A stretch of DNA of 35,706 nucleotides from Candidatus Brocadiia bacterium (GCA_050015075.1 JBEKCB010000039.1:1-35706); one strand, 5' to 3'. Positions 1-18,433 are shown, numbered from the stretch's first letter. Notes: generated from the letters alone by a model not told the origin. Translations and numbers: made by a program.

Positions 1-239
1 GTCACCTCCGTCTCGCCCAGCGCGACGCTGCCGCCGGTCGGCCGGTCGAGCGAGCCGACGATGTTGAGCAGCGTGCTCTTGCCCGCGCCCGACGGCCCGA
101 TGATCGCAAGCGTCTCGCCCGCGTCGAGGTCGAACGAGACGTCCTTCAGCACCGCCAGCGGCGGCGTGGAGTCGAACTCCTTCCGGACGTGCCGCACCGC
201 CAGCCGCAGACGACCTGAGTTTTCAGCGCGATCAGTCAT
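1..239 (-). CDS. ABC transporter ATP-binding protein, LolD/MacB-like (5' part only; runs off the left edge)
   Basis: Not in the ORF track. Manual translation from ATG at 239 gives [72 protein letters not shown]. Walker A GPSGAGKS is followed by the LolD-type TLLNIxGxLDxPTxG. Confidence 0.9.
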
Positions 240-264
240 GGCGTCTTTAGTTGTCAGCAAAAGG

Positions 265-330
265 TCTCACGCAAAGTCGCAAAGGCGCTAAGAACTGCAA
301 AGGCAAGGATGGCCGTCCTTTGCAGCTTCG
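265..330. repeat. CGCAAAG-type short repeats with a hairpin (REP-like intergenic element)
   Basis: tctcaCGCAAAGtCGCAAAGgCGCtAAGaacTGCAAAGG; inverted repeat ctgcaaagg (295-303) / cctttgcag (317-325). Confidence 0.55.
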
Positions 331-432
331 TGTGTTATCCCCGCCCGTTTGAGATTCTTTGCCCATACTATCAACAAGAGCTTATAACCGAAAGGCGAAA
401 TCGCTTGAATCGTCAAAACTCAGCAATAAGAG

Positions 433-1377
433 TCAACCTGCCGCCGCCTCCGCGAGGAGGGCGAGCGTGCCGAGGCCGTAGTAGGTGTACTCGACGTCCG
501 GCGCGGCATCGCCGGCGCAGGCGCGGAATCCGCCGCGGCTGGCCTGAAGGTTGTGCGCGAATCTTGCCACGGGCGCGAGTTTCACTTGGCCGAGCGCGCC
601 GATTCCGGCCAGCGCGACCGAGGCGGTGAAGGTGGAAAGCAGGTCCGGCTCCGGCGCGCCCGAGCCGGCGGCGAAACCGCCTTCGGGGCACTGCATGGAG
701 GCGAGGAATTCGGCTGCGCGTTCATACAGGCCAGGCGCCTGTGCTTCATCGAAGAGCGTGAGCAGCGCCAGCGCGGCGGCGGTGGGATTCGTCGCGCCCT
801 CGCCGCCGGCCTGTGCGCTGTCGGCATAGCCGCCGTCGGCGCAGCGGCGCGAGTGGACGAACGCGGCGGCCTCGGCTGCGCCGGAAAAATCCGAGTCGCT
901 CAATTCGGCGCAGAGCGCGGCCAGGAACGTGTGGTACACCGTCGCTTCGCCGCCCGGGAACCGCGCATAGCCGCCGTCCGCCGCGCGCGAACGCGCGACG
1001 ACTTCCATGATCTCGGCGCGCCGCTCATCGTTGCGCCCGGCTCCGGCGCGCTCGCCGGCGAGCCGGCGGATGTACAGCAGGCAGAAGCACTCGATCATGT
1101 CCCTCGGCGGCGCGGAAAGACTGCCCGCGTACTGCGCCGCGCCGTGCCAGAGGCGCTCGTCGGCCGGGACCAGCAGTTCAGCGGAGCGAAGCGCGAACAT
1201 CGTGTAATAAACGTCCGATCCGCCCAGCCGCCCGGCGAACCCGCCGTCCGGACGCTGCGCCGCCAGGAGATACTCCGAATGCCTCGATCGGAAACTGTCC
1301 GGCAGGGATTTCAGCCCGGCGGTGAGGCGGGTGGTGAGAGTTGAGAGATAGCGTGGTTTTTCAGTGTCGCCTGGCAT
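433..1377 (-). CDS. Prenyltransferase/squalene oxidase repeat protein (single (alpha/alpha)6 barrel, geranylgeranyltransferase-beta-like)
   Basis: Repeated QW-like/PFTB motifs: YLLAAQRPDGGF, DVYYT, ADGGY (twice), FLASMQCPEGGF, LQASRGGF, DVEYTYYGL. Confidence 0.85.
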   Translation of the reverse strand: MPGDTEKPRYLSTLTTRLTAGLKSLPDSFRSRHSEYLLAAQRPDGGFAGRLGGSDVYYTMFALRSAELLVPADERLWHGAAQYAGSLSAPPRDMIECFCLLYIRRLAGERAGAGRNDERRAEIMEVVARSRAADGGYARFPGGEATVYHTFLAALCAELSDSDFSGAAEAAAFVHSRRCADGGYADSAQAGGEGATNPTAAALALLTLFDEAQAPGLYERAAEFLASMQCPEGGFAAGSGAPEPDLLSTFTASVALAGIGALGQVKLAPVARFAHNLQASRGGFRACAGDAAPDVEYTYYGLGTLALLAEAAAG

Positions 1378-1414
1378 GTTTCGCGGTCGATATGTTCTAA
1401 GAGTGCGAACCCTT

Positions 1415-1489
1415 CAATTTCCAAATCCAATTTCCAATTTCCAAACGGTGAGCGGCTTGCGCTCATTGAAAATTGGGACTCGGAAATTT
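1415..1489. repeat. CAATTTC heptamer array, central hairpin and partly complementary arm (palindromic intergenic element)
   Basis: caatttc-caaatc-caatttc-caatttc-caaa (1415-1445), hairpin tgagcg...cgctca (1449-1465), then ttgaaaattgggactcggaaattt, which is partly complementary to the heptamers. It is an AT-rich island in GC-rich DNA. Confidence 0.65.
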
Positions 1490-3231
1490 TACAAGACGGC
1501 TTCCAGGAGGAAATGCATCAAGTCGCGCAGCGCCTCGGCGGGCATGGCATCGGCCTCGGCGCGGGCGCGCTCGCGGTATTTCTCGACGAGCTTGCGCGCC
1601 TGGTCGAACGCGCCGCGCTCCTCGTAAACCTTGCGCAGGCTCTCGAGCTTGAGGTCGCGCGCCACGTCGGGCTCGGTCACCGAGGCGAGTTTGCGGATCG
1701 TCGCCGCGTCGCCGGTCTCGAGCGCGAGCGCCAGCAGCATCGTCGGCCGCCGCGCGAGCGAATCCTGCCCGGCCACGAGCTTGTCGCGCCGGTCGGCGCT
1801 CCAGTCCTTCAGGTCGTTCAGGAGTTGATACGCCACGCCGACGAGACGGCAGAACCGCCGCAAGTTCTCCGTGCGCGCGAGGTCCGGGCTCTCGCATTGC
1901 GCCGTCCGCACGCCCGCATACAGGGCCGCCTCGAACGCCGGCGCCGTCTTCAGCGCATAGATCCGCTGGACGGCTTCCGGCCGCACGGCCATCGGGTCGC
2001 CGCGCGTCCAGAGAAGCTCCTCGCCCTGGCCGCGGCAGAGTTGCGTGTGCGCTTCGGAGAGATGGGCGAGGATGTCCGCGACGCACTCCGCGCCGAGTTC
2101 GCGCCGGCCCGACGCGACGAGCCGGTAGCCGAGCCCGATCAAGTAATCGCCGACGTTGAGCGCCGTCGCTATGCCGTGCCGGCGGTGCAGCGTCTCGCGC
2201 CCGTAGCGGAACTCATCGTCGTCCTCGATATCGTCATGGATCAGCGAGGCCTTATGAAGCGCCTCGATCGCGAGCGCGACCCGCCGGACGGCGCGCGGGA
2301 AATTCCCGGCCTCGGCGGAATCCGCATCCGGCGCGCCGGCGTCGCGCGACGCGGCGGCATGGCCCGCCAGCGTGATGAACGGCCGAAGCCGCTTGCCGCC
2401 TTCGCGCAGCCACTCGAGCGCCAGCGTTTCCGTGCCCTGCGCGGGAGACATTTCGCAAGGGCCGTTCATCGTCGCCGAGACGACCATGTCGGCGAGCAGT
2501 TCGTCGAGCGCGCGGTCCTCGAAGAGCCGGTCGGCGGCGCGGAGGAGCGGAACGTAGCTCCGCGTACCGGTCCCGGCGGGCCCGGCCTGCTGGCGGAGCC
2601 AGCCTCGCAGGACGGCGATTTCGGCGGTGGTGGCGACGCAGCCGTCGGTGAGGAGCGGCACGGCCACGTGCGGAACGCCCAGCGCGGCGACTCGTGCGAA
2701 GACTTTCTCGAGCGAGTCGAGGCACGCCATGCCCAGGATCGCGTCCGCCTGCCCTCGCAGGACGACCTCGACGACCGCCGGCGAGCCCTCCGCGATGAGC
2801 ACGGTGTATCCGAGCGACTCCGCCTCGGCCTTGACGGCCGCCAGCGTGCAGGCGCCGCACTTCGCGCACGAGAGGCCGCGCGCGTCGTACGTGCCTTTGC
2901 ATTCCCTGACGTGGCGGAGGCAATGCGGCAGCAGCAGCAGCCTTCGCGACGGCGGCACGGCGGCGAACTGCCCGCGCCAGAATTCGTTGTTGACCGACAC
3001 CATCGCAAAGCCCAGAGAGGATGGAGCGGCATGAAGCCGGCCGATCAGATCGGACGCCGCCTTCTCGACCTCGGCGGGCAGGGGCGGCTTGCGACGGTCG
3101 AGCGTCGCGGCGGCGTCGGCGGCCGCCGCGCGGATGCGCTCGCGCTCCAGCGGCTCCGCCGGGACGATCTTGATATTGACCGGCGAGGGCCGTTTATTGC
3201 TCGTCGCGATGTCGTTCATTTGATGGACCAT
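1489..3231 (-). CDS. DUF116 (Cys-rich) domain fused to a trans-polyprenyl diphosphate synthase
   Basis: N-terminal LLLPHCL...C...CAKCGAC...IAEGS...GMAC (DUF116 pattern). C-terminal GGKRLRP, ASLIHDDIEDDDEFRYG (FARM), GQ, KT and YQLLNDLKD (SARM variant). Confidence 0.88.
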   Translation of the reverse strand: MVHQMNDIATSNKRPSPVNIKIVPAEPLERERIRAAAADAAATLDRRKPPLPAEVEKAASDLIGRLHAAPSSLGFAMVSVNNEFWRGQFAAVPPSRRLLLLPHCLRHVRECKGTYDARGLSCAKCGACTLAAVKAEAESLGYTVLIAEGSPAVVEVVLRGQADAILGMACLDSLEKVFARVAALGVPHVAVPLLTDGCVATTAEIAVLRGWLRQQAGPAGTGTRSYVPLLRAADRLFEDRALDELLADMVVSATMNGPCEMSPAQGTETLALEWLREGGKRLRPFITLAGHAAASRDAGAPDADSAEAGNFPRAVRRVALAIEALHKASLIHDDIEDDDEFRYGRETLHRRHGIATALNVGDYLIGLGYRLVASGRRELGAECVADILAHLSEAHTQLCRGQGEELLWTRGDPMAVRPEAVQRIYALKTAPAFEAALYAGVRTAQCESPDLARTENLRRFCRLVGVAYQLLNDLKDWSADRRDKLVAGQDSLARRPTMLLALALETGDAATIRKLASVTEPDVARDLKLESLRKVYEERGAFDQARKLVEKYRERARAEADAMPAEALRDLMHFLLEAVL

Positions 3232-3260
3232 CTTATGAATATTCGCTTATGAAACGCAAT

Positions 3261-5048
3261 TCATGTGCCGCCTAGTATTCGCCCAAGCGCGGAGACCGTC
3301 CACAGCGCCGGGTAGACTCTCTCAGCATACCACAACTTGGCGAAATACAAACCGATCGGCGCGGGCTTGTCCAGGCCGCCCTCGCGGATTCGCGCGAGAA
3401 GCCATGCGCAGCCGCGGTCGCGGGCGGTTGTGGCGGACTCGCTCTCGGGCGCGCCGGCCAGCGCGTCCAGCGCGAGCGCGGTTTCCTCGATGCTGCTGGG
3501 CACGTTCTCATCGCCGCCCCAACCGCCATCGGGATTCTGCGCGCGGAGGAGCCGGGCCAGACCGCGCTGCGCCTCGACGCCGTTCCCCAGGCCCAGGTCG
3601 CGCCAGGCGGCCAGCACTTGCGCGGTGCCGTAGAGCGGGTTCTCGTCGCGCGGCGCCTGCTGGTTCCCGAACCAGAGCGGCACCCACGCGCCGTCGGCGC
3701 GCTGCGCGCGGCGGAGATATTCCACGCCGCGCCGCAGGGCGCGCTGCTCCTTTGCGTCGGAAACGACGCCGCGCCACGCCGAGATCGCCCTCAGCGCGTG
3801 CGCGGTCAGGTCCGGCGCGCTGCGGTCGAAGGGAAGCCGTCCCCAGCCGCGACAGAACGTCGGCCATCCGCCGTCGCGGTTCTGAAGGCCCAGGAGCCAC
3901 TCGACGCCGAGCCGCGCGGCATCGGTCGCTTCGCCGCCGAGCCGGCTTAACGCCAGCAGCGCCGCCGAGGTGTCGTCGGCGTCGGGGACGCCGCCGGAAA
4001 GGTCCGTCCATGCCCAGCCGCCCGGAGCGGCGCCGGTATAGAGATGTCCGCGACGGTGCTGGCAGTCGAGGATCCACCGGCGCGTGCGGGCGGCATCGGG
4101 CTCGAAGCGATTCCCGCCCGCCGTCAGCGCGGCCACCGCCAGGCTGGTGAGCCAGTGCGAAAGGTTCGTGTCAATGGCCCAGCTTCCGTCCGCGCGGAGG
4201 GATTTCGAGAGGAATTCCAGCCCGCGGCGAGCGACGGGGTGATCGCTCCGGCCGGCGCCGGCGAGGCTCATCACGACGAAACTGGTCAGCGGCACGGCCT
4301 CCAAAAACCCGCCGCTCTCCGGCTGGATCGCCTGGAGCCGCCGGAGCGTCGGGGCGAGCGTCGCCGCCCGGAGCGCGCGCAGGAACGGGTTGCGGCTGGG
4401 CGCTGCATGGTGGCGAAGCTGGCCGACGGCGATCAGCGCCGGCAGCGCGTAACTGACCACTTCGAGATTGAGCAGCCGGAAGCTCGCGTGCGGCAGGCAG
4501 GCCAGCTCGAAGGGCAGCGCCGGCACGTGGCGCCATGCCGGACGCGTCGGGCCCGCAGCCGCCAGCGCGCAGTTCGTCAGGATCGGCGCGGCGAAGGTCC
4601 GGTCCTCGCCGTAGACCGCTTGAAGCGCCCGCACGCGCGAGTCGGCGGAGGCGCCGGCGCTGGAGTCGAGATATCGCTCCGCTTTCCGCAGCGCCGACGC
4701 GGCGGGATCCGAACCTTCGCGGCCCGAAAGGATCAACGCGGCCTCGGCGAGCATCGCCGTTGAGACGTTGCTGCGGCTCTCGGGCGTATCGCCCCAGCCG
4801 CCGTCCGCGTTCTGGTGGGCCGCCAGCCACGCCACGCCGCGCCCGATGAAGTCGGCGAACCGCTCGCGCGAGACGACGGAAAAGGCGCTCACCGCCGTCG
4901 CGGTCGCGAGGGCGGAAGGCGACAGCTCCCCGTTCCAGCATCCCTCGGGCGTTTGCCATGCCAGAAGGGCGGCGCGGGCGGATTCGTAGGCCTCGCGAAG
5001 TTCTTTGACGCCCGGCCGCGGCGGCGCGCCGGCGAGGGATGGGGTCAT
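3261..5048 (-). CDS. Squalene-hopene-cyclase-like class II terpene cyclase
   Basis: Catalytic PDADDT (DxDD) and several QW repeats (WLAAHQNADGGWG, WLLGLQNRDGGW, YLRRAQRADGAW, LLRAQNPDGGWG). Start placed at ATG 5048, which overlaps the upstream TGA (ATGA coupling). Confidence 0.88.
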   Translation of the reverse strand: MTPSLAGAPPRPGVKELREAYESARAALLAWQTPEGCWNGELSPSALATATAVSAFSVVSRERFADFIGRGVAWLAAHQNADGGWGDTPESRSNVSTAMLAEAALILSGREGSDPAASALRKAERYLDSSAGASADSRVRALQAVYGEDRTFAAPILTNCALAAAGPTRPAWRHVPALPFELACLPHASFRLLNLEVVSYALPALIAVGQLRHHAAPSRNPFLRALRAATLAPTLRRLQAIQPESGGFLEAVPLTSFVVMSLAGAGRSDHPVARRGLEFLSKSLRADGSWAIDTNLSHWLTSLAVAALTAGGNRFEPDAARTRRWILDCQHRRGHLYTGAAPGGWAWTDLSGGVPDADDTSAALLALSRLGGEATDAARLGVEWLLGLQNRDGGWPTFCRGWGRLPFDRSAPDLTAHALRAISAWRGVVSDAKEQRALRRGVEYLRRAQRADGAWVPLWFGNQQAPRDENPLYGTAQVLAAWRDLGLGNGVEAQRGLARLLRAQNPDGGWGGDENVPSSIEETALALDALAGAPESESATTARDRGCAWLLARIREGGLDKPAPIGLYFAKLWYAERVYPALWTVSALGRILGGT

Positions 5049-6664
5049 GATCGGATGCTCCCCGACCTCGCCGCGAAGAGGCATTTCCAGGCGAGCGTCT
5101 GCGCGCGGCCGAGCGCCTGCAGCGTGCTGCGCCGCCAGAGCGGCACGCCGGCGGCGGATTGATTATCCCACAGGAGGCGCGGAGCCCACCGGAAGTTCAG
5201 GTCGTAGCACGCGCGGAACAGCCGCCAGTGCGCGGCCGACATTTCTTTGAGGCCGAACGGCGCCGCCCCGGCGCTCAGCGGAGCGTTGAAGAGCGGGAAG
5301 ATCGCCAGCCGTTCGCCCGACAGGCGCTGGACCCAGCGGAACGTCCGGTCCACGTCGGCGGGCGTCTCTCCGGGCAGGCCGAACAGGATGCTGACCAGCG
5401 GGAAGTAGCCGAGCCGGACGAGGCGGCGCACCTGGTGTTCGGAGAATTCGTCCCACGCTTCCGGTTCGACTCCGCCCATCTTCGCGCGGCCGCCGTTCGC
5501 GGCGAGCAGCGCGCCGGAGGCGGTCTCGACGCCCAGGTTCAGCCAGACGAATTCGTGACCGGTGCCGCCGACGATGCCGCGGCGGACGGCGGCGAGTTCC
5601 TCGTCGCTGAATTGCGCCGCCGAGCTGACGTTGGCGTGGTCGGTCTGGATCAGCCGCGTCGCCGCGAGCGAGCGCAGGCGTGTGACGAGTTCGATCAGCG
5701 CCGCCGGCCGCGCGCGCGCGCCCTGCGCCCCGTAGCGGAAAACGTCCTCGGTGACGAGAACGAGGTCCGTCACGCCGGCGGCGAGGTTCACCTGCGCGTC
5801 GGCAAGGATGGCGTCCATCGGCAGGTGCTCCATCGGCACGCGCGCGAGCGTGCAGAAGGCGCAGCCGAGCCCGCAGCCGCGGCTGATTTCCACGCCGCCC
5901 ATGAGCGTCGGGCCGAGGATCGGCGGGATTTTCTCCGCGTCGGCGACGCGCGCTCCGGCGAGCGCGTCCGGGAGTTTTTCGCCGTCGAGAATGCGCGCGA
6001 AGAGCGCGCCGATGTTGCCTTCGCAATAGCCGGAGATCACGTGGTCAATCCCCAGTTCCTCCTGCGCGCGGCGGTTGCCGGCGAGCTGCCACGCGCCGGC
6101 GCCGCCGAGCACGATCTTAGCCTCGGGAGCGGCGGACCGGCGAAGGCGGCGGATGCTCCCGGCGAGCCGCCGGAACCAGCGGCTGGTGTAAATCTCGCCG
6201 CCGAGGATGGCCGACATCGTCGTGCTGTTCATGCCGAGCCCAAGCGGATCGCCGGAGGAGATGCCGATGACGCGAGTGTCCGGCCCGACCGCGCGCTTGA
6301 GCGAAGCCGGGTCCACGATCGCCACGTCCGCCTGTCGAAAGCCCGTGCGCGCGAGGGCGGACTCGATGCGGCGAAGCCCGAGCGGCGACTGGAATGCCCG
6401 GAAGCCGTCGCGCCGCGCGGCCGGGGCGAGGAGCGTTTTCATCAGGAGCGACGGCGTGCGCGTGGTCTGGCTCGCGCTGACCATGCCTTCGAACAGGACG
6501 CGGTAGCCGGCGAAAAGTGTGCGGTCGGCGGTCAGGACGATCGGGATGCCGTGCCGCGGAGCGGTCCGCACCTTGAGCCGGGGAAAGGCCGATGCGTCGG
6601 CGACCGGCGCTAGGACGGCGGCCGTAGCGGCAGCGGGCGTCGGCAGGCGGTCGGAGTCACTCAT
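5045..6664 (-). CDS. B12-binding-type radical SAM protein resembling the archaeal Grs/COG1032 family
   Basis: CxxxCxxC in VEISRGCGLGCAFC; N-terminal IVLTADRTL, PLGLRRIESAL, IGISSGDPLG, IVLGGAGAWQ; LGVETAS and GLPGETPAD. ATG 6664 overlaps the end of the upstream gene. Confidence refers to the radical SAM call; the family assignment is less certain. Confidence 0.85.
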   Translation of the reverse strand: MSDSDRLPTPAAATAAVLAPVADASAFPRLKVRTAPRHGIPIVLTADRTLFAGYRVLFEGMVSASQTTRTPSLLMKTLLAPAARRDGFRAFQSPLGLRRIESALARTGFRQADVAIVDPASLKRAVGPDTRVIGISSGDPLGLGMNSTTMSAILGGEIYTSRWFRRLAGSIRRLRRSAAPEAKIVLGGAGAWQLAGNRRAQEELGIDHVISGYCEGNIGALFARILDGEKLPDALAGARVADAEKIPPILGPTLMGGVEISRGCGLGCAFCTLARVPMEHLPMDAILADAQVNLAAGVTDLVLVTEDVFRYGAQGARARPAALIELVTRLRSLAATRLIQTDHANVSSAAQFSDEELAAVRRGIVGGTGHEFVWLNLGVETASGALLAANGGRAKMGGVEPEAWDEFSEHQVRRLVRLGYFPLVSILFGLPGETPADVDRTFRWVQRLSGERLAIFPLFNAPLSAGAAPFGLKEMSAAHWRLFRACYDLNFRWAPRLLWDNQSAAGVPLWRRSTLQALGRAQTLAWKCLFAARSGSIRS

Positions 6665-7442
6665 CCAACTTCTCAAGAGCGGTGATCAAGTGATCGAGGT
6701 CGCCCGGCGGCGCGCTTTCACCGCGGGCATCCTCCTGCGGCGCCGGGCGCGAAGTCTCCGGCCGGCTCGGTGTCTCCGACCCCGCTCTTCGCAGCTCCGC
6801 CGCTACGGCGGGCGAAGAAGAGTCGGCGGGCTGAGAAGAGCCGGTGATGGCGGCGTCCGCGAAGTAGTGCGGGAAAATGATGGCGCGCTGCGGACAGGTC
6901 CGCGCACAGGCCGGGCAGCCGTTCTTGCAGTTGTCGGGGTTGCCCACGACGACGTTGCCGTCGGAGAGCGCGTACACGCCGAACAGGCAGAAGTCCACGC
7001 ACTTCCGGCAACTTGTGCAGCGCGAGTAATCTATCACCGGATACCACCGCGGACTCGCCGCGTCCGCGATTTCCTTCAGCGTGGCGGCGCGACCTGCCGC
7101 GGATCGGGGCGCGAGCGCACGGGCGCAATCTGCTACCGTCGCGAAATCGGCCAGGTTCAAGCAGCGGATCGCGCGCGCGCCGACGCCCAGCGCCCGAAGC
7201 GTCCAGAGCGCGGCGCGCGGATGCAGCCATGAGGCGACCGCGAGGTCGCCGCGCGCTTGCATCAAGGCCGCCGCGGCCGGCTGCGAGGCGCGCAGGTGAT
7301 ACAGGTGCGGCACCACGAGCAGGTCCGATCCGGCTTCCCGCCGCAGCGTGTCCGCGAGCGCGTCTTCGAAGGCGGCATGATCGCCGGCGATCCCTCGCCC
7401 GTCGCGCGAGATGACGATGGTCACTGCTTGAGATTGAAGCAT
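6657..7442 (-). CDS. Ferredoxin-domain protein, 2x[4Fe-4S], with an N-terminal extension
   Basis: CTSCRKCVDFC and CKNGCPACARTCP. Start set at ATG 7442 because the longer ORF overlaps typA and a promoter. Confidence 0.82.
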   Translation of the reverse strand: MLQSQAVTIVISRDGRGIAGDHAAFEDALADTLRREAGSDLLVVPHLYHLRASQPAAAALMQARGDLAVASWLHPRAALWTLRALGVGARAIRCLNLADFATVADCARALAPRSAAGRAATLKEIADAASPRWYPVIDYSRCTSCRKCVDFCLFGVYALSDGNVVVGNPDNCKNGCPACARTCPQRAIIFPHYFADAAITGSSQPADSSSPAVAAELRRAGSETPSRPETSRPAPQEDARGESAPPGDLDHLITALEKLDE

Positions 7443-7482
7443 GGATAAAGAATCCCCACGCGAAAGGAAACCGGACTCTTCA

Positions 7483-7512
7483 ATTATAAACTGAATCGGG
7501 CAGGGGTGTAAA
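7483..7512 (-). promoter_or_regulatory. Sigma70-type promoter for the terpenoid operon
   Basis: Minus strand TTTACA-N18-TATAAT, about 40 nt upstream of ATG 7442. Confidence 0.55.
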
Positions 7513-7545: not shown

Positions 7546-9366
7546 TCAGTCCTGCAGGCGATCCGGAAGCGGCTTGCCGGTGAAGAGGCGCGCCTTGCGG
7601 AGGCGGATGGATTTGGGCGTGACTTCGACGAGTTCATCGTCGCGGATGAACTCGATCCCGCTTTCCAGGGAGACCGGGGTCACCGGCGTGAGGATGACGG
7701 TCATCTCTTTGCCCTTCGCGCGGACGTTCGTGAGCTTCTTGGTCTTGCACGGGTTGACGATGAGATCGTTCTCGCGGCAGTGCTCGCCGATGATCATCCC
7801 TTCGTAAACCTTCTCGCCGGGCGTGATGAACAACGGGCCGCGTCCCTCCAGAGTCTCCAGCGCGTAGGTCACCGCGTCGCCTTGCGCGTTCGACACCAGC
7901 GAGCCGGTCGTGCGCGTGGCGAAATCGCCGCGGTATTCCTCGTAGCCGTCGAGATACGAACTCATGATGCCGGTGCCCTTGGTGTCGGTGAGGAACTCGT
8001 TGCGGTAGCCGATGAGGCCGCGCGTGGGGATGGAGATTTCCAGCCGCACGCGTCCGCTGCCGTGGTTGACGAGGTTGACCATGCGCCCTTTGCGGCGCGA
8101 GAGTTTCTCGATGACCACTCCCATGTGCTTTTCATCGCAGTCAACGAACAGGCGCTCGATCGGCTCCAGCCGCTTGGGGCCTTCGCCCTTGTAGATCACC
8201 TGCGGGCGGCCGATGCTGAGTTCGTATCCTTCGCGCCGGAGCGTCTCGGCGAGGATGACCATCTGGAATTCGCCGCGCCCCTGGACGATGAACTCGTCGG
8301 TCTCGGCGGTCATGATGATGCGGAGCGCGACGTTGCGCAGCGCCTCTTTCAGCAGGCGTTCGCGGATCTGGCTGGCGCGGACGAACTTGCCCTCGCGGCC
8401 GGTGAAGGGCGAGCTGTTGATGGTGATCATCACGGAAACGGTCGGCTCGTCCACGCTCACGCGCGGCAGGGCGCGCGGGGCCTCGCGGGTGCTGATCGTG
8501 TCGCCGATGTTCACGTCTTCAACGCCCGCGAGAATGATCACGTCGCCGGGCGCGGCCTCGTCCACGTCCTCGATCTTCACGCCGCGATACGTCTGGAGGC
8601 TCGTGACTTTCAACGGCAGCGCGACGCCTTCGGCGTTGATGCGCACGAGCGCGTCGTTGCGCTTCGCGGAGCCGTGGGCGATCTTGCCGATCGCCAGACG
8701 ACCGAGATAGTCGGAGTAGCCCAGGTCCGTCACGAGCATCTGGAACGGCTCGTCGGTGTCGTACGAGGGCGGCGGGAGTTCCTTGAGGATCATGTCGAAG
8801 AGCGGCGCGAGGTCTTTGCCCTCTTCCTCGATGGTCGGCTTGGCGATGCCCTCGCGCCCGATCGCGTAGAGCAGCGGGAACTCGGCCTGATGGTCCGTGG
8901 CGTCGAGGTCAATGAAGAGGTCGAAGATCTCGTTGAGCACCTGCACCGGGCGCGCGTCCTTCCGGTCGAGCTTGTTGATGACGACGATCAGGCGCAGCCC
9001 GCGCTCGAGGGCCTTGCGCAGGACGAAGCGCGTCTGCGGCAGGGGGCCTTCGGCGGCGTCCACGAGCAGCACCGCGCCGTCCACCATCATCAGCGCGCGC
9101 TCGACCTCGCCGCCGAAATCGGCGTGGCCGGGCGTGTCCACGACGTTGATCTTGACGCCCTTCCAGTTCATCGAGCAGTTCTTCGCGGCGATGGTGATGC
9201 CGCGCTCGCGCTCGAGGTCCATGTTGTCCATCACGCGCTCGACGACCTCCTCGTTCTCGCGGAACGTGCCGCTCTGGCGGAACATGTAGTCCACCAGCGT
9301 GGTCTTGCCGTGGTCCACGTGCGCGATGATGGCGATGTTGCGGATTTTGTCGTTGAACTGCTTCAT
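7546..9366 (-). CDS. typA: Translational GTPase TypA/BipA
   Basis: [48 protein letters not shown]-terminal [14 protein letters not shown]; start MKQFNDK at 9366. Confidence 0.97.
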
Positions 9367-13980: not shown

Positions 13981-14076
13981 GCTTCGGCAGCCTTTTCATT
14001 AAATGTGTCGCCGGCGAGTTGAGCATTTTATCTTAAGCGAAGGATTTCGCAAACCTGGGCGGCGCCGAAGAAGTGC

Positions 14077-14105
14077 TTGACTGGCGTCACCCCGGTCGCC
14101 AGAAT
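14077..14105 (+). promoter_or_regulatory. Possible sigma70 promoter of the plus-strand GT-C gene
   Basis: TTGACT-N17-CAGAAT, about 40 nt upstream of ATG 14145. Confidence 0.35.
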
Positions 14106-14144
14106 GTGACGTTCGATGTCCGGCCGTCGCGTGTAAGGTGCCCT

Positions 14145-15746
14145 ATGGCAAGATCCGAATGCCGCGAACCTGATCCGCCCGCCGTCCCGCCGGCACGGGG
14201 ATTGCCGATGTGGCTGCCGGCGATGGTCCTCGCTCTCGCGTTGAGCGCGCTGGTCTTCGCCACCTTGCGCGACTACGGCATCACTTGGGACGAGCCGACC
14301 TATGCCTCGTCGGCCATCTCGCACTCGGCCTGGTTCCGCAGCCCGCGGCTGGCGACCATTGACCGGTTCTGGTCTCCGACCCACGAGCATCCGCCGCTGG
14401 CCGGCCTGGCCGGCGCGTTCATCCGCTACGCCGTCCATCGGCAGTTCGGCCTGCTCGACAACGTGTCGAGCTGCCGTCTGCAATGCGTGATCTTCGTCTT
14501 CCTGGGCAGCTTTGCGCTGTTCATGCTGATCGGGAGAAGTTACAGCTGGTGGACGGCCGCCCTGGCGGCGACGTCGTTCATCCTGCTGCCGCGCGTGTTC
14601 GCCGACGCGCATTTCGTGGCGCTGGACTTCCCGACGACGGCGGTTTGCGTCGCGGCGGCGTGGCTGTTCTGGCGCGGACTGGCGCGCGGGCGGATGCTGC
14701 CGGCGGCGGTGCTGATCGGCCTGGCCATGCTCTGCAAAGTCTATGGCCAGTTTCTGTACGCGCTGTGCCTTATCTGGTTCGCCGTGCATCACCGGCAGGC
14801 GTGGCTGGACCTGGCCCGGCGGCGAGGCGGCGACCTATGGCCGCGCGCCTTGAGGGAACTGGCGGTGCTGATCTGCGTCCCGTGGCTGATCTTCTTCGCC
14901 GGCTGGCCATGGCTCTGGCCGCACCCGATTCAGCGGACGCTCGACTACCTCACCTGGCAGGCCGGGCACGTAGCGCCGCCGACGTGGTACTTCGGCCGGA
15001 CGTCCGATCATCCGCCCTGGCATTACCCGTTCGTGATGAGCGCCGTCACGATGCCGCTGGCGGTGCTCCTGGCGATTCTGCCGGGCGTGTCGCGGCTGCG
15101 AAGGGCGGCTGAGCGCCCGTTCGTACTTTTCCTGCTGGCCAACGCCTTCACGCCGCTGGCGGTCGTGGCGTTCCTGACGCCGTGCAAATACGACGGCGTG
15201 CGGCTGTTCCTGCCGGCGTTCCCGTTCCTCTGCGCGCTGGCGGCGATCGGCGTGCAGGAGGTCTGCACGCTGCCGCGAGCGCCCTGGGCGCGACGGGCGG
15301 CGGCCGCGGCCTGCGCCGCCATATTCCTGCTGACGTTCGCGTCTTCCACGTACCGATACCACCCGTTCCAGACCTCGTATTACAACGAGCTGCTGGGCGG
15401 CGTGCGCGGCGCCGCGGAGAAGGGATTCGAGACCGAGTATTGGGGCAACGCCTATGTGAAGCTGATTCCCTGGCTGCAGAATCATCCAGGGGTACCGTTG
15501 TGGGTGCCGATCAATTACGACTCGCTCAAGATGTACCAGGACCTGGACGTGCTTCCGGAGCTGCGATTGACCGGCCGCGCGCAGGCGGACTACCTGGTGC
15601 TGCTGGTGCGACAAGGGCGGTTCGATGAGGAACTGTGGCGGTTCTATCGCACGGAAAAGCCGGAGATTTCCGTAACGCTGCTCGGTCAGCCGCTTGTCAA
15701 TGTCTACCGCCTGAACGCGCCGGTCACTCCGCCGTCAGGACGATGA
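14145..15746 (+). CDS. GT-C fold membrane glycosyltransferase (PMT/ArnT, GT39/GT83-like)
   Basis: DYGITWDEP after TM1, EHPPL, many TM helices, PPWHYP, KYDGVRLFLP, YYNELLGG...GFETEYWG. Start uncertain. Confidence 0.82.
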   Translation: MARSECREPDPPAVPPARGLPMWLPAMVLALALSALVFATLRDYGITWDEPTYASSAISHSAWFRSPRLATIDRFWSPTHEHPPLAGLAGAFIRYAVHRQFGLLDNVSSCRLQCVIFVFLGSFALFMLIGRSYSWWTAALAATSFILLPRVFADAHFVALDFPTTAVCVAAAWLFWRGLARGRMLPAAVLIGLAMLCKVYGQFLYALCLIWFAVHHRQAWLDLARRRGGDLWPRALRELAVLICVPWLIFFAGWPWLWPHPIQRTLDYLTWQAGHVAPPTWYFGRTSDHPPWHYPFVMSAVTMPLAVLLAILPGVSRLRRAAERPFVLFLLANAFTPLAVVAFLTPCKYDGVRLFLPAFPFLCALAAIGVQEVCTLPRAPWARRAAAAACAAIFLLTFASSTYRYHPFQTSYYNELLGGVRGAAEKGFETEYWGNAYVKLIPWLQNHPGVPLWVPINYDSLKMYQDLDVLPELRLTGRAQADYLVLLVRQGRFDEELWRFYRTEKPEISVTLLGQPLVNVYRLNAPVTPPSGR

Positions 15747-17373
15747 ACGCCGGCGGATCGGCCGGGTCGCGGAACGCGACACGCCAGGGCGCCGGGAGTT
15801 TCACCACGCGCACGGAATCGTCGTCCACGTCCACCCACTCGCGCAGGCCGGCGCGGTTGCGCAGCAGGCTGTAGTCCAGCACGGCGTAGCGCGCGCCCGC
15901 GGCGCGCATGGCCGGCCGCAAGGCATCCGTCGTCGTCCACGGCACCGGCACAATGCATCCAGCCAGTTCGGCGTCCCAGAAGTAAGCGTACGCGTGCGAG
16001 GGGCCCAGCATCACGGGAGCATCCACCGAGGCGTGCGCGTGCAGCCATATGCGGAGCGCCTCATATCCGGGAGGCAGGCGATAGCTGGCGAGGGGATCCT
16101 GCCGGAGACCTTGCCAAGGCGCGGCGAGCGCGATGGTGGCACACGCCAGGACCAGCGCTGCGATCAGGGCGACGCAGCGCGCGGGGATGGTCCGGTGTGC
16201 CGCCCTGGCCGCGCGGCGGAGCGCCGGAAACAACCCGCGTGTGGCCAGGATAAGCAGGATCGGCACGAGCGGGAAGATGAAGCGGATGTCTTGAGCCGGA
16301 TACCACGCGAAGAACAGGAAAAACACCGCGAAGATAAACCAGGCCAGCACCGCGGCGGGCCGCACCGAGCGCGAGCATAAGGGCGCCAGCGCAAGGAGCA
16401 GGAGGAGCAGTCCCAGCGGCCAGGCCTTCAAGCGCAGGCGCTCGTTCAGGGGATAAGTCTGGCCGACGGCGACGACGGAATAGACTCCCTGCTGGAACAG
16501 CCCCGTTGTCGCGCGGTGGGCAATCTGCCGCAGCGTGTGCGTGCGCCAGAACAGGCCCGCCGTCGGCGCGCGCACGTTGACATCGGTCGAGTACAACTCG
16601 TCGGGATGGTTCGTCCAGATGAAGCTCTTGTTCTCGTTATACAGCGGCGGGCCGTAGAGCCGGACATTGCGGACCAGGACCGGCGACATCACAACGGCCA
16701 TCGCCAGCAGCGCGGCCCACGCCTCGCGCGAGCGCCAGAGCCGCCGCCGCTCGCGCCATGCAAACGCCCCCAGCGCCGCCGGCAGCAGGAAGAGGCCGTT
16801 CGCCTTGGTGACGTACGCCAGCCCGATGAAGAGGCCGATCCACACGCCGCCGCGCCCGGTGCGCACGTAGCGAACCATGAACGCCCACGCCAGGAGCACC
16901 CAGATGGCGAAGATCGGCTCGCAGCAGACCGTGGTTCCCTGGGTCAGCCAGGAGGTGTTGCAGGCCAGGAGCGCCGCCGCCAGGATGCCCGCCGCGGCCC
17001 CGAACAGCCGCCAGCCGGCGACGCCGCAGACGACGACCCCGGCCGCGGCGATTCCCAAAGTGAGCAGCTTCGCCCATCCCACCCCTTGCAGCCGATCCAC
17101 GGGCAGTGGCGAGAGCAGGGCGATGTACAGCGGCATGCGGCCGGCTTCCGCGTACCTGCCGGCGTAGCAGTCGGCCAGCATCCGCAGGGGCCCGCCGTTC
17201 TGCCGCACTTCGCGGGCGACGCGCAGGTACGCGCCCGTGTCATACGGACAGAACTCCGGCTCCTCGTGCAGTTTGTTGAGGCCGGCGAGCAGGAATCCGG
17301 CCAGCGCCAGGACCAGGAGGCATCCGACGCCCCAACGTCCGGGATGAGAAAGCCATGAGCCCATAATCTGCAC
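15724..17373 (-). CDS. GT-C fold membrane glycosyltransferase (ArnT/PMT-like)
   Basis: PYDTGAYL after TM1, RMPLY, CEPIF, GLAYVTKANG, RNVRLYG, DIRFIFPLVP; many TM helices; start at 17373 (GTG) or 17364 (ATG). Confidence 0.8.
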   Translation of the reverse strand: MQIMGSWLSHPGRWGVGCLLVLALAGFLLAGLNKLHEEPEFCPYDTGAYLRVAREVRQNGGPLRMLADCYAGRYAEAGRMPLYIALLSPLPVDRLQGVGWAKLLTLGIAAAGVVVCGVAGWRLFGAAAGILAAALLACNTSWLTQGTTVCCEPIFAIWVLLAWAFMVRYVRTGRGGVWIGLFIGLAYVTKANGLFLLPAALGAFAWRERRRLWRSREAWAALLAMAVVMSPVLVRNVRLYGPPLYNENKSFIWTNHPDELYSTDVNVRAPTAGLFWRTHTLRQIAHRATTGLFQQGVYSVVAVGQTYPLNERLRLKAWPLGLLLLLLALAPLCSRSVRPAAVLAWFIFAVFFLFFAWYPAQDIRFIFPLVPILLILATRGLFPALRRAARAAHRTIPARCVALIAALVLACATIALAAPWQGLRQDPLASYRLPPGYEALRIWLHAHASVDAPVMLGPSHAYAYFWDAELAGCIVPVPWTTTDALRPAMRAAGARYAVLDYSLLRNRAGLREWVDVDDDSVRVVKLPAPWRVAFRDPADPPAFIVLTAE

Positions 17374-17392: not shown

Positions 17393-18433
17393 TCACCGCA
17401 CGAACAGAAACAGCGCGACGTAGAGGACCGGCATTCCTGCGAAGACCATGCCTTCCGTGAAGTGGTGCAGCTTCAGCGCGCGGGCCTGCTTTTCCGGTTT
17501 GCCCTGCATGAGATAGATGGCCAGGCTCAGGCAGAAGCTCACCAGCAGGATCAGGTACGTCAGCACCATGAATTTGTCCGCGAAAGTCAGGTAGCCCACC
17601 GGCGGAATCTGGCCGGAGATCGAGACGTGGAACATGGCCGAGGCGACCAGCGCCGAGCTGATGGCGCCCAGCCGAGTGGTCACCTTGTCCGGGTCGAGGA
17701 TGAAACTGGCCATCACGATCAGCATCAGGAAAAGCACCGGCAGGAAGGTCTTCAGGAAGGAGTTGACCGCAATCCGCGCGATGTCCACGCTGAAGAGGTA
17801 CTGCGAGTAAACCTCGTTTTTGCCTTCCGGCGTCTTGTAGACCGGGTACTCATGCTCGGCGGAAGTGGCCTCCCAGCCTTTGATGGCCCAGCCGGGGAAG
17901 ACGATGGCGCGGTCCATGCCGCTCTCGGCCGTCAGCGGAATATATTTCACCTTCTCGAGGCCGTTCGTCTTGTTCTCCAGGATAATCTGCATCTTCTGCG
18001 CGTCGAACGGGAAACGCCGCAGGTCAATGGGCGTGTTCAGGGTCGCCAGGACGCGGTAGAATTTCTCGTTGCCCTTGTCCTCGATCTTGTCGAACGTGCC
18101 GCGGCCGTTCATGAACTCGAGCGCGGCGCTTTCCTCCGCGATCTGGTTCTTGGGATCCTTGGACTTGAGATCCAGGTAGAAGTCCACGGTGAACGAGCCG
18201 GTGCTAATATCCAGCTTGCCGATGTCGAGGATGTAGATCCCGACGAGGATTTCCTGCTGCACCGCCGGCGCTTCGGGCGCGGCTGCGGGAGTCGCCGGCT
18301 GAGCTGCGGGCGGTTTCGCGGGTTCGGCGGCCGTCGCGGCGGGAGCGCTCGCGGAGACCTCCTGCGCGGCGGCGAAACGGGCAAAACCCGAAACGGCTGC
18401 GACGAACAACAGGGCGGTCAACAGTCTTCTCAC
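17393..18433 (-). CDS. Prokaryotic pentameric ligand-gated ion channel (GLIC/ELIC-like)
   Basis: Signal peptide plus Ala/Pro linker; VGIYILDIGKLD...SFTVDFYL; Pro-loop DLRRFPFDAQ; GW; M1 KTFLPV; M2; PPVGYLTFADKF before M3; M4 at the C-terminus. Confidence 0.85.
   Translation of the reverse strand: MRRLLTALLFVAAVSGFARFAAAQEVSASAPAATAAEPAKPPAAQPATPAAAPEAPAVQQEILVGIYILDIGKLDISTGSFTVDFYLDLKSKDPKNQIAEESAALEFMNGRGTFDKIEDKGNEKFYRVLATLNTPIDLRRFPFDAQKMQIILENKTNGLEKVKYIPLTAESGMDRAIVFPGWAIKGWEATSAEHEYPVYKTPEGKNEVYSQYLFSVDIARIAVNSFLKTFLPVLFLMLIVMASFILDPDKVTTRLGAISSALVASAMFHVSISGQIPPVGYLTFADKFMVLTYLILLVSFCLSLAIYLMQGKPEKQARALKLHHFTEGMVFAGMPVLYVALFLFVR

Follow-up and report, generated by a model that had tools for sequence, protein, structure and literature searches.

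Squalene-hopene cyclase (SHC) of the hopanoid (hpn) pathway is a two-barrel class II cyclase with a DxDDT motif, a His partner and QxxxGxW (QW) repeats, and a radical S-adenosylmethionine enzyme (rSAM), such as HpnH, HpnP or HpnR, is found beside it. Planctomycetes also encode 'SHC-like' proteins, which retain the catalytic residues and whose genomic context 'suggests different precursors to squalene', according to the accessible part of Santana-Molina et al. 2020 (PMC7306690). This 'SHC-like' or 'unknown function (Unk)' clade was flagged there and again in 2025 (Mol Biol Evol, PMC12414744), the accessible text of both papers giving no function for it. Here we describe a gene cassette around a cyclase of this kind, located in the first 35.7 kb of contig C39 (the window) of a Candidatus Brocadiia bacterium, whose genome assembly comprises 4.64 Mb in 66 contigs and is 93.56% complete. 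On balance, we lean towards the view that five genes of this cassette make a cyclic isoprenoid from the cassette's own head-to-tail polyprenyl chain, and not from squalene.

The window cyclase shares with the 'SHC-like/Unk' clade a host range covering the PVC group, Acidobacteriota and Bacteroidota, a length of 550-700 aa, the catalytic residues, a context without squalene genes and scores below the thresholds for SHC and oxidosqualene cyclase (OSC). No difference between the two is known, the comparison having been made by traits and not in one tree; taxon range, length and motifs fit membership of the published clade. The cyclase architecture, and the presence of an rSAM next to the cyclase, are also features of the hopanoid pathway. 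However, the cassette contains no squalene-synthase-family gene, and it has a synthase fused to a DUF116 domain, an extra toroid protein as putative subunit and a dedicated ferredoxin. As for HpnH, the SPASM-type rSAM of related loci matches it weakly (36.4 versus 225 bits), and it is not among the matches of the window rSAM. The Bacillus sporulenol pathway (HepS/HepT, YtpB, SqhC) and Lon15/AtoE resemble the cassette, as far as the accessible sources go, in having an SHC-family cyclase, a head-to-tail polyprenyl-derived substrate and a dedicated trans-prenyl synthase. In contrast to these systems, no YtpB-like or epoxidase gene was seen in the cassette, and its redox parts and toroid partner have no counterpart there. 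Many of the cassette hosts are labelled as belonging to lineages of anaerobes (Anaerohalosphaeraceae, Sedimentisphaerales, Brocadiia); this argues against an O2-dependent epoxide route. Finally, the beta subunits of protein prenyltransferases (RabGGTase, GGTase-III, FTase) and the monodomain cyclase MstE share the single alpha6/alpha6 toroid and PF00432 repeats with the toroid protein, whereas the latter has no alpha-like gene in its cluster, shows no conserved zinc trio in the alignment and no DxD/DxDD acid, and is predicted to dock on the cyclase.

We found no paper joining the cassette parts and no functional study of the bacterial 'SHC-like' clade since 2020 in the literature searched. In a cluster described by a figure legend of a Bipolaricaulota preprint, DUF116 is a protein of its own, accompanied by an SHC, a polyprenyl synthetase and an HpnH-like protein. 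The original prediction, made from the window sequence, had called the pathway undescribed. This holds for function, none being demonstrated in the searchable papers, but not for the parts: the cyclase clade with its non-squalene context appears in the literature of 2020 and 2025, and that of 2015 already has the fusion. Apparently new here are the figures for the linkage of cyclase and fusion and for their independence from PF00494, the alternation of two rSAM types between genomes, the prediction of a heterodimer of cyclase and toroid protein, and the observation that the window copy continues, on contig C17, into an exporter of the MacB type.

The operon, its cyclase and the conservation of the cassette

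Positions 1-7512 of the window hold six genes, all on the minus strand and downstream of one promoter-like site. In the order of the row, the features are as follows.

7483-7512, minus strand: sigma-70-like promoter site (TTTACA, 18 nt, TATAAT; 11/12 consensus matches, and a consensus match only)
6657-7442, minus strand: ferredoxin-domain protein, 2x[4Fe-4S] (Fer4 families)
5045-6664, minus strand: rSAM of the TIGR04013/MiaB-like type (PF04055, 30.2 bits; CGLGCAFC at 268)
3261-5084, likely start 5048, minus strand: 'SHC-like/unknown-function' terpenoid cyclase, class II, protonation-type (PF13243, 144.5 bits; PF13249, 77.2 bits)
1489-3231, minus strand: DUF116::trans-polyprenyl diphosphate synthase fusion (PF01976, 115.9 bits; PF00348, 128.1 bits)
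433-1377, minus strand: single alpha/alpha-toroid protein of 314 aa, like a prenyltransferase beta subunit (PF00432, 67.5 bits; cut-off 26.5)
3-260, minus strand: ABC ATPase fragment, N-terminal 86 residues, running off the contig (PF00005)

The promoter-like site lies in the spacer between typA and the ferredoxin gene. Three such sites occur in the 9.8 kb scanned, against 0.5 +/- 0.6 in shuffles, and no terminator-like site was found on the minus strand within the six-gene row. The stop codon of the ferredoxin gene (TGA, 6659-6657) overlaps the start of the rSAM gene (ATG, 6664-6662), and the rSAM stop (TGA, 5047-5045) and the cyclase ATG (5048-5046) form an ATGA overlap; the spacers in the row measure 29, 110 and 172 nt. 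The six genes form a genuine operon around the SHC-like cyclase. Gene calls and promoter scan thus bear out the earlier claim of six co-oriented genes behind a single promoter-like site, and the start/stop overlaps proposed at 6657-6664 and 5045-5048 are both exact in the sequence. The ferredoxin gene was read from the ATG at 7442; a longer frame, starting at 7637, would run into typA. For the cyclase, an in-frame ATG at 5084, upstream of 5048, is also possible. The typA gene itself was rejected as a member of the system, as it adjoins the cyclase only in one near-identical locus, L006 (L-numbers denote related loci and G-numbers sampled genomes, G000 being the window's own).

The cyclase carries its catalytic acid, DADDTS, at residues 368-373 of the 607-aa frame, and five QW repeats. 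The nearest solved structure is the SHC of A. acidocaldarius (E 8.6e-27). In the alignment with this enzyme, DADDT falls on DVDDT and H429, which is invariant in 33 family rows, falls on the His of DVTAH; H429, W471 and Y485-G486-T487 align with SHC residues surrounding the catalytic acid. Of 47 aligned rows, from the window and from 46 related loci, 45 have the DxDDT motif and the other two are truncated. Against the SHC equivalog TIGR01507 the cyclase scores 122.1 bits, below the cut-off of 431.1, whereas true SHCs of the same phylum reach about 440-820 bits; against the squalene/oxidosqualene cyclase subfamily it scores 149.6 bits (cut-off 322.7). In a quick maximum-likelihood tree of 33 family rows, six true SHCs and one paralogue, for which the careful search is unfinished, the family rows are split from the SHCs by branches of 6.39 and 1.83 (SH-aLRT 100 and 98). 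The six SHCs come from one phylum, and the references do not include OSC, SqhC, diterpene or epoxy-polyprenyl cyclases. The TIGR01507 score and this tree support the earlier interpretation in that the cyclase is no bona fide SHC; nesting among such enzymes, with hopene made from squalene that genes elsewhere supply, would have refuted it. Of the phylogeny proposed with that interpretation, the tree covers the comparison with SHCs. The same tree places the cyclase of L046, labelled Candidatus Kuenenia sp., next to a near-identical one from L027, a metagenome-assembled 'Planctomycetota bacterium' (end branches 0.014 and 0.013). The L046 contig may be mis-binned, because none of 10 sampled f2 class-mates carries the cassette.

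We confirmed 46 related loci from 184 pattern matches, several of them too short to show the neighbours. One of these cyclases, from another Candidatus Brocadiia bacterium, is 94% identical to that of the window and the others are 40-55% identical. The hosts belong to Planctomycetota, Verrucomicrobiota, Lentisphaerota, Acidobacteriota, Armatimonadota, Bacteroidota and other phyla. The cyclase has the following neighbours.

Synthase fusion: 33/46 loci
Toroid protein: 32/46 loci (HMM, at least 90 bits)
Ferredoxin protein: 25/46 loci

An rSAM of one type or the other occupies the rSAM slot in 26/46 loci, the window type in 5/46 and a SPASM type of 397 aa in 21/46. As read from coordinates, the toroid gene lies directly upstream of the cyclase in 27 of its 32 loci. 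The commonest order (ferredoxin, rSAM, synthase, toroid, cyclase) differs from that of the window, and four Planctomycetia loci keep just ferredoxin, cyclase and synthase together, with one toroid orthologue elsewhere in each genome. It had been predicted that these genes form one set, a view that would fail if they were neither co-conserved nor co-transcribed; indeed, five of them (cyclase, fusion, barrel, ferredoxin and rSAM) are co-conserved across phyla.

We then examined a phylum sample of 251 genomes, spread evenly and including G000. The cyclase was called at E <= 1e-70 (42-60% identity) and the fusion at E <= 1e-40. Co-occurrence is given as counts without a test because related genomes are not independent.

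Cyclase orthologue: 65/251 genomes
DUF116-synthase fusion: 67/251 genomes
Cyclase and fusion together: 63/251 genomes
Cyclase without fusion: 2/251 genomes
Fusion without cyclase: 4/251 genomes, two of them partial matches
Neither cyclase nor fusion: 182/251 genomes
PF00494 (Sqs/HpnC/HpnD/phytoene synthase family): 136/251 genomes
True SHC: 89/251 genomes

No PF00494 (SQS_PSY) gene was found in G000, in a search whose control was positive in 8/14 known genomes. Altogether, 25 of the 65 cyclase-bearing genomes, G000 included, have neither PF00494 nor a true SHC. The absence of squalene-synthase-family genes, first noticed in the window alone, thus extends to the whole genome and to 24 other cyclase-bearing genomes. 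The suggested genome search for hpnCDE or sqs returned no PF00494. A 498-aa flavin amine-oxidase-family protein (PF01593; 12484-13980, minus strand), encoded 5 kb upstream of the row on the same strand, was considered as HpnE, its best named match, and rejected at 66.7 bits against a cut-off of 283, which leaves it unassigned. The cassette runs, at the gene level, independently of squalene-synthase genes. Among the 89 SHC genomes PF00494 is present in 78, that is, in all those outside the window's own class. The remaining 11, with SHCs of about 690-780 bits, are all class-mates of G000 (G032, G062, G087, G112, G132, G151, G169, G186, G203, G219 and G235) and make up the whole sample of that class apart from G000; they agree with a published remark, in the accessible part of its source, that anammox bacteria lack the Sqs/HpnCD family. 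The cassette is found in none of these 11, and therefore does not explain the hopanoid producers that have no squalene synthase.

Parts of the cassette and a predicted cyclase complex

The synthase domain of the fusion has the IPP-binding motif GGKRLRP and a first Asp-rich motif, DDIED, at 333, this first motif being found in all 34 synthase rows. The second Asp-rich motif reads NDLKD in the window; NDxxD occurs in 6/34 rows, the window included, and DDxxD in 28/34. No NCBIfam equivalog cut-off was reached by the synthase, the best score being 118.7 against 450. Five positions ahead of DDIED the synthase has Ala, like the octaprenyl diphosphate synthase of E. coli (5ze6) and unlike the geranylgeranyl diphosphate (GGPP) synthases 1wy0 and 5jfq, which have Tyr/Phe. 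This position limits chain length, and the product chain is probably longer than C20, as judged from sequence. The genome holds two other polyprenyl synthases, so the fused enzyme, a third paralogue, is an extra and dedicated copy.

The DUF116 domain is Cys-rich, with seven invariant Cys. According to the accessible part of a 2015 survey, DUF116 is predicted to be a flavodoxin-like electron-transfer domain, and its fusion with the synthase was noted in Pirellula staleyi. For the AF2 model (pLDDT 79.6), Foldseek gave no PDB match within E <= 0.001. The best-ranked of its weak hits have Rossmann- or flavodoxin-like folds (SIS, receiver and B12-binding domains), in agreement with the 2015 prediction. 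A second, stand-alone DUF116 gene, a 154-aa frame scoring 128.5 bits, lies at 65894-66307 of contig C3 of G000 (L004), with an ABC ATPase and an FtsX-like match 7-9 kb away.

The toroid protein, modelled by AF2 with a pLDDT of 93.8, has as best Foldseek folds the beta subunits of RabGGTase and GGTase-III (TM about 0.65), followed by MstE (about 0.6). There is no DxDD motif in its sequence, and its 31 invariant columns include one Cys (C99) and no His, hence no invariant Asp/Cys/His trio. No alpha-subunit-like gene is present in the cluster, the search for one having been confined to it. A profile comparison of toroid protein and cyclase aligned only 110 repeat columns, with 94.4% probability, and is silent on a shared active site. 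The toroid orthologue is single-copy in the five genomes checked and is kept even when it lies away from the cassette; the neighbours of the unlinked gene in three Planctomycetia genomes include no cassette genes.

The complex of cyclase and toroid protein was predicted with a score of 0.73 on the model's own confidence scale, whereas none of three controls exceeded 0.00. This mark is reached by 58/80 solved complexes and 2/110 mismatched pairs, counts that are only a rough guide here because own alignments were used. Three runs share at least 90% of the contacts, with a partner pLDDT of at least 88. The predicted interface comprises cyclase residues 184, 196-197, 226-247 and 277-279 and, on the toroid side, the invariant R50, Y57, D93, Y148, T196 and P244-S248 among others; cyclase 226-247 is predicted to touch toroid 236-248 and 286-292. 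Columns conserved at 90% or more are enriched in the toroid interface (15/33 versus 69/314; hypergeometric p = 0.0013). The model thus supports binding, and the toroid protein is a predicted partner of the cyclase, perhaps a subunit of a heterodimer, which makes it doubtful that the barrel stands alone, as had been proposed. We know of no solved complex of a cyclase with a prenyltransferase beta subunit. The contact segment of the cyclase lies in the domain that carries the membrane plateau and channel entrance of SHC. If the contact is real, the toroid protein may replace membrane docking or SHC-type dimerisation; this would fit a remark on the dimer surface in the accessible text of the 2025 paper (PMC12414744). 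Some long cyclase frames that resembled cyclase-toroid fusions were rejected as high-GC frame artefacts.

The ferredoxin protein consists of a small N-terminal alpha/beta-like domain of no known family, the 2x[4Fe-4S] core and a helical tail. Eight Cys are invariant in a 26-row alignment (C142, C145, C148, C152, C172, C176, C179 and C183). The window rSAM scores 67 bits against TIGR04013 (cut-off 251). Its CxxxCxxC motif is present and its N-terminal part is weakly B12-binding-like (PF02310, 18.2 bits), below the cut-off of 32.1, so that it does not qualify as a class B (cobalamin) rSAM; the ESM Atlas returned only generic 'MtaB family / B12-binding rSAM' clusters. G000 has the window-type rSAM and only weak SPASM matches (27-28%), and the four Planctomycetia genomes and the L046 genome are SPASM-type only, with no match to the window type. 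Among these six genomes the two types are mutually exclusive, one per genome, and an rSAM is obligatory. In each of the four Planctomycetia genomes, one SPASM-type rSAM (56-61% identity) lies outside the cyclase locus. All resemblances of the SPASM-type enzymes to peptide maturases are low-scoring and far below the family cut-offs.

The SPASM-type enzyme is well conserved: that of a Vicinamibacterales genome (L017, 4139-5332) is 56-61% identical to those of the four Planctomycetia genomes (G251-G254), more than the synthase fusion (32-55%, window to locus) or the toroid protein (29-36%). SPASM-type loci also contain a CobW-like GTPase (18/46), and in the two that we opened (L017 and L026) a GcvH-like carrier lies upstream, with a class-V, desulfurase-like aminotransferase in L017. 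The upstream accessory genes (L017 2-1162 and 901-1644; L026 1270-1734 and 2976-3347) include one for a 123-aa protein of no family. The aminotransferase, GcvH-like, CobW-like and 123-aa genes were all absent from the vicinity of the window copy.

A candidate product and its rivals

The analysis shows which genes and motifs are present, how they are co-conserved and that they do not depend on squalene-synthase genes; from this we infer a scheme for the chemical steps, the chain length, the heterodimer and export. The synthase domain would extend an allylic diphosphate; the resulting chain probably exceeds C20. A heterodimer of cyclase and toroid protein would protonate a terminal double bond via the central Asp of DADDT and close several rings. 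The rSAM, supplied by the dedicated ferredoxin and possibly also by the Cys-rich DUF116 domain, may perform a radical tailoring or a precursor step. In the lineage of the window, the lipid may reach the envelope by way of a MacB-type ABC exporter with periplasmic propellers. Most likely, the end product would be a membrane lipid; since the cassette is found in 65/251 sampled Planctomycetota genomes and in several phyla, this lipid may be abundant and so far unrecognised, and could be a source of orphan sedimentary biomarkers. The cassette is in any case a concrete and testable gene set (ferredoxin, one of two rSAM types, DUF116-synthase, toroid protein and cyclase), and specifically predicts that the toroid protein is a required subunit of the cyclase. 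As far as their accessible text goes, the two evolutionary studies single out the clade for its missing substrate and product and state that knowledge of these would constrain the evolution of triterpenoid cyclases.

Several observations weigh against synthesis from a polyprenyl chain made by the cassette. The literature searchable here reports no product, substrate or activity for members of the family. The window synthase has NDLKD in place of the canonical DDxxD, and may thus differ from a simple elongating synthase; the chain length is deduced from a single residue position. PF00494 is carried by 40 of the 65 cyclase genomes, in which squalene could therefore still be used, and the incompleteness of G000 (93.56%) limits the absence of PF00494 there. 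Some loci have no adjacent synthase or toroid gene, and the transporter link concerns the window genome and 2/46 other loci only. The tree was a quick search that rests on a few SHCs from one phylum, without other cyclase classes. As for the complex, conservation of the cyclase side of the interface is 0.51 against a protein average of 0.63, the score may echo the barrel-on-barrel packing inside two-domain cyclases, and natural cyclase-toroid gene fusions, looked for among the related loci, were not found.

Among the other explanations, we consider it unlikely that the product is a meroterpenoid or cofactor, whose chain would be joined to a non-isoprenoid head group before cyclisation (compare MstE and the epoxy-polyprenyl cyclases Lon15 and AtoE of the sister clade), with the toroid protein as the transferase. 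The published sister clade, in the accessible text, contains meroterpenoid as well as polyprenyl cyclases, the best folds of the toroid protein are prenyltransferase beta subunits and then MstE, and the GcvH-like carrier, class-V aminotransferase and CobW-like GTPase of SPASM-type loci could build or carry a head group. However, the window and the scanned loci showed neither a head-group pathway nor a transferase of the UbiA or ABBA type. An invariant Asp/Cys/His trio, such as forms the zinc site in protein prenyltransferases, is missing from the toroid alignment, and the conserved face of the toroid protein is predicted to contact the cyclase. The same toroid fold and PF00432 match could instead point to modification of a peptide or protein, by a prenyltransferase-beta-like enzyme together with a SPASM- or B12-type rSAM maturase, and the SPASM-type rSAM of other loci is peptide-maturase-like at low scores. 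This seems very improbable to us: the window spacers (29, 110 and 172 nt) are too small for a precursor-peptide gene, no alpha-subunit-like gene is seen in the cluster, every rSAM match is far below its family cut-off, and the DxDDT acid, the QW repeats and the dedicated chain synthase point to terpene cyclisation.

Squalene could enter in two ways. The cassette might make squalene, or a different tail-to-tail precursor of triterpenes, by an alternative route that depends on ferredoxin or radicals, and the SHC-like enzyme would then turn this into a hopanoid-like triterpenoid. The redox parts (ferredoxin, DUF116, rSAM) would be unneeded for elongation and cyclisation, PF00494 is absent from G000 and 24 other cassette genomes, and the gamma domain of the clade is of the 'triterpenoid' type according to the accessible part of PMC12414744. 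We nevertheless judge this route improbable, given that cyclase and fusion occur in 0/11 class-mates that have a true SHC without PF00494, that 40/65 cassette genomes already possess PF00494, that the synthase has the long-chain-type Ala at -5, and that the published sister clade, as far as its accessible description goes, takes head-to-tail substrates. Scarcely credible is an ordinary SHC supplied with squalene made elsewhere or taken up. Its DxDD and QW motifs and the A. acidocaldarius SHC as nearest solved structure would suit such an enzyme, but they are outweighed by a score of 122.1 bits where 431.1 is required and the true SHCs of the phylum reach 440-820, by the long, supported branch that separates the cyclase from SHCs, by the lack of PF00494 in the genome and by the tight linkage to its own polyprenyl synthase in 63 of 65 genomes.

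The preferred reading, a cyclic isoprenoid from the cassette's own head-to-tail chain, can be narrowed to a more specific proposal, which we regard as quite unlikely: the cyclase-toroid heterodimer would cyclise a regular head-to-tail C30-C40 chain to polycyclic polyprenoids. Ourisson reportedly proposed polycyclic polyprenoids such as 'tricyclohexaprenol'. If the proposal were true, the cassette would account for the tricyclic terpanes (cheilanthanes) found in sediments and oils, whose biological source has long been missing, and its rSAM, ferredoxin and DUF116 parts would supply oxygen-free tailoring. The hosts (PVC bacteria and Acidobacteriota) include lineages known as anaerobes. Our search of the literature on tricyclic terpanes found no paper naming a cyclase, and a 2026 preprint, in its accessible part, counts cheilanthanes among biomarkers with an incompletely characterised pathway.

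The ABC transporter and neighbouring genes

The operon had been predicted to run past the left edge of the window, and the remainder of the ABC ATPase does lie on contig C17, right at its end. Next on that strand come genes for a 1128-aa permease (MacB_PCD plus FtsX in two stretches), for two PQQ-like beta-propellers and for an NHL propeller. We read the hydrophobic N-termini of the propellers as signal- or anchor-like, which would make these proteins exported. The proposed leftward extension led to the rest of the ATPase on C17 but gave no exact sequence overlap between the C17 end and the window start; the join is inferred because the ATPase reads on across both contig ends. Across this putative join, the combination of an ABC ATPase with a MacB_PCD/FtsX permease is that of a MacB/LolCDE-type (type VII) exporter. 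The LolD equivalog was not reached (53.6 versus 307.75), the 86-aa fragment being too short to reach the cut-off. The original prediction counted the ABC transporter as part of the pathway. We rejected it as a core part, since the permease adjoins the cyclase in only 2/46 other loci, and regard it as a lineage-specific neighbour.

Downstream of the propellers, positions 63-6262 of C17 (minus strand; L065) encode Fer4 proteins of 199 and 423 aa and an 824-aa NuoE-NuoF-like fusion with 2Fe-2S thioredoxin-like, Complex1_51K, NADH_4Fe-4S and Fer4 domains. This set could be an NADH-linked electron source. Elsewhere in the window, two convergent genes (14073-15746, plus strand; 15724-17373, minus strand) encode PMT_2-type membrane proteins resembling polyprenyl-phosphate-dependent glycosyltransferases. 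Beside this pair, a 346-aa protein (17393-18433, minus strand) gives a weak match to ligand-gated ion channels (65.8 against a cut-off of 500).

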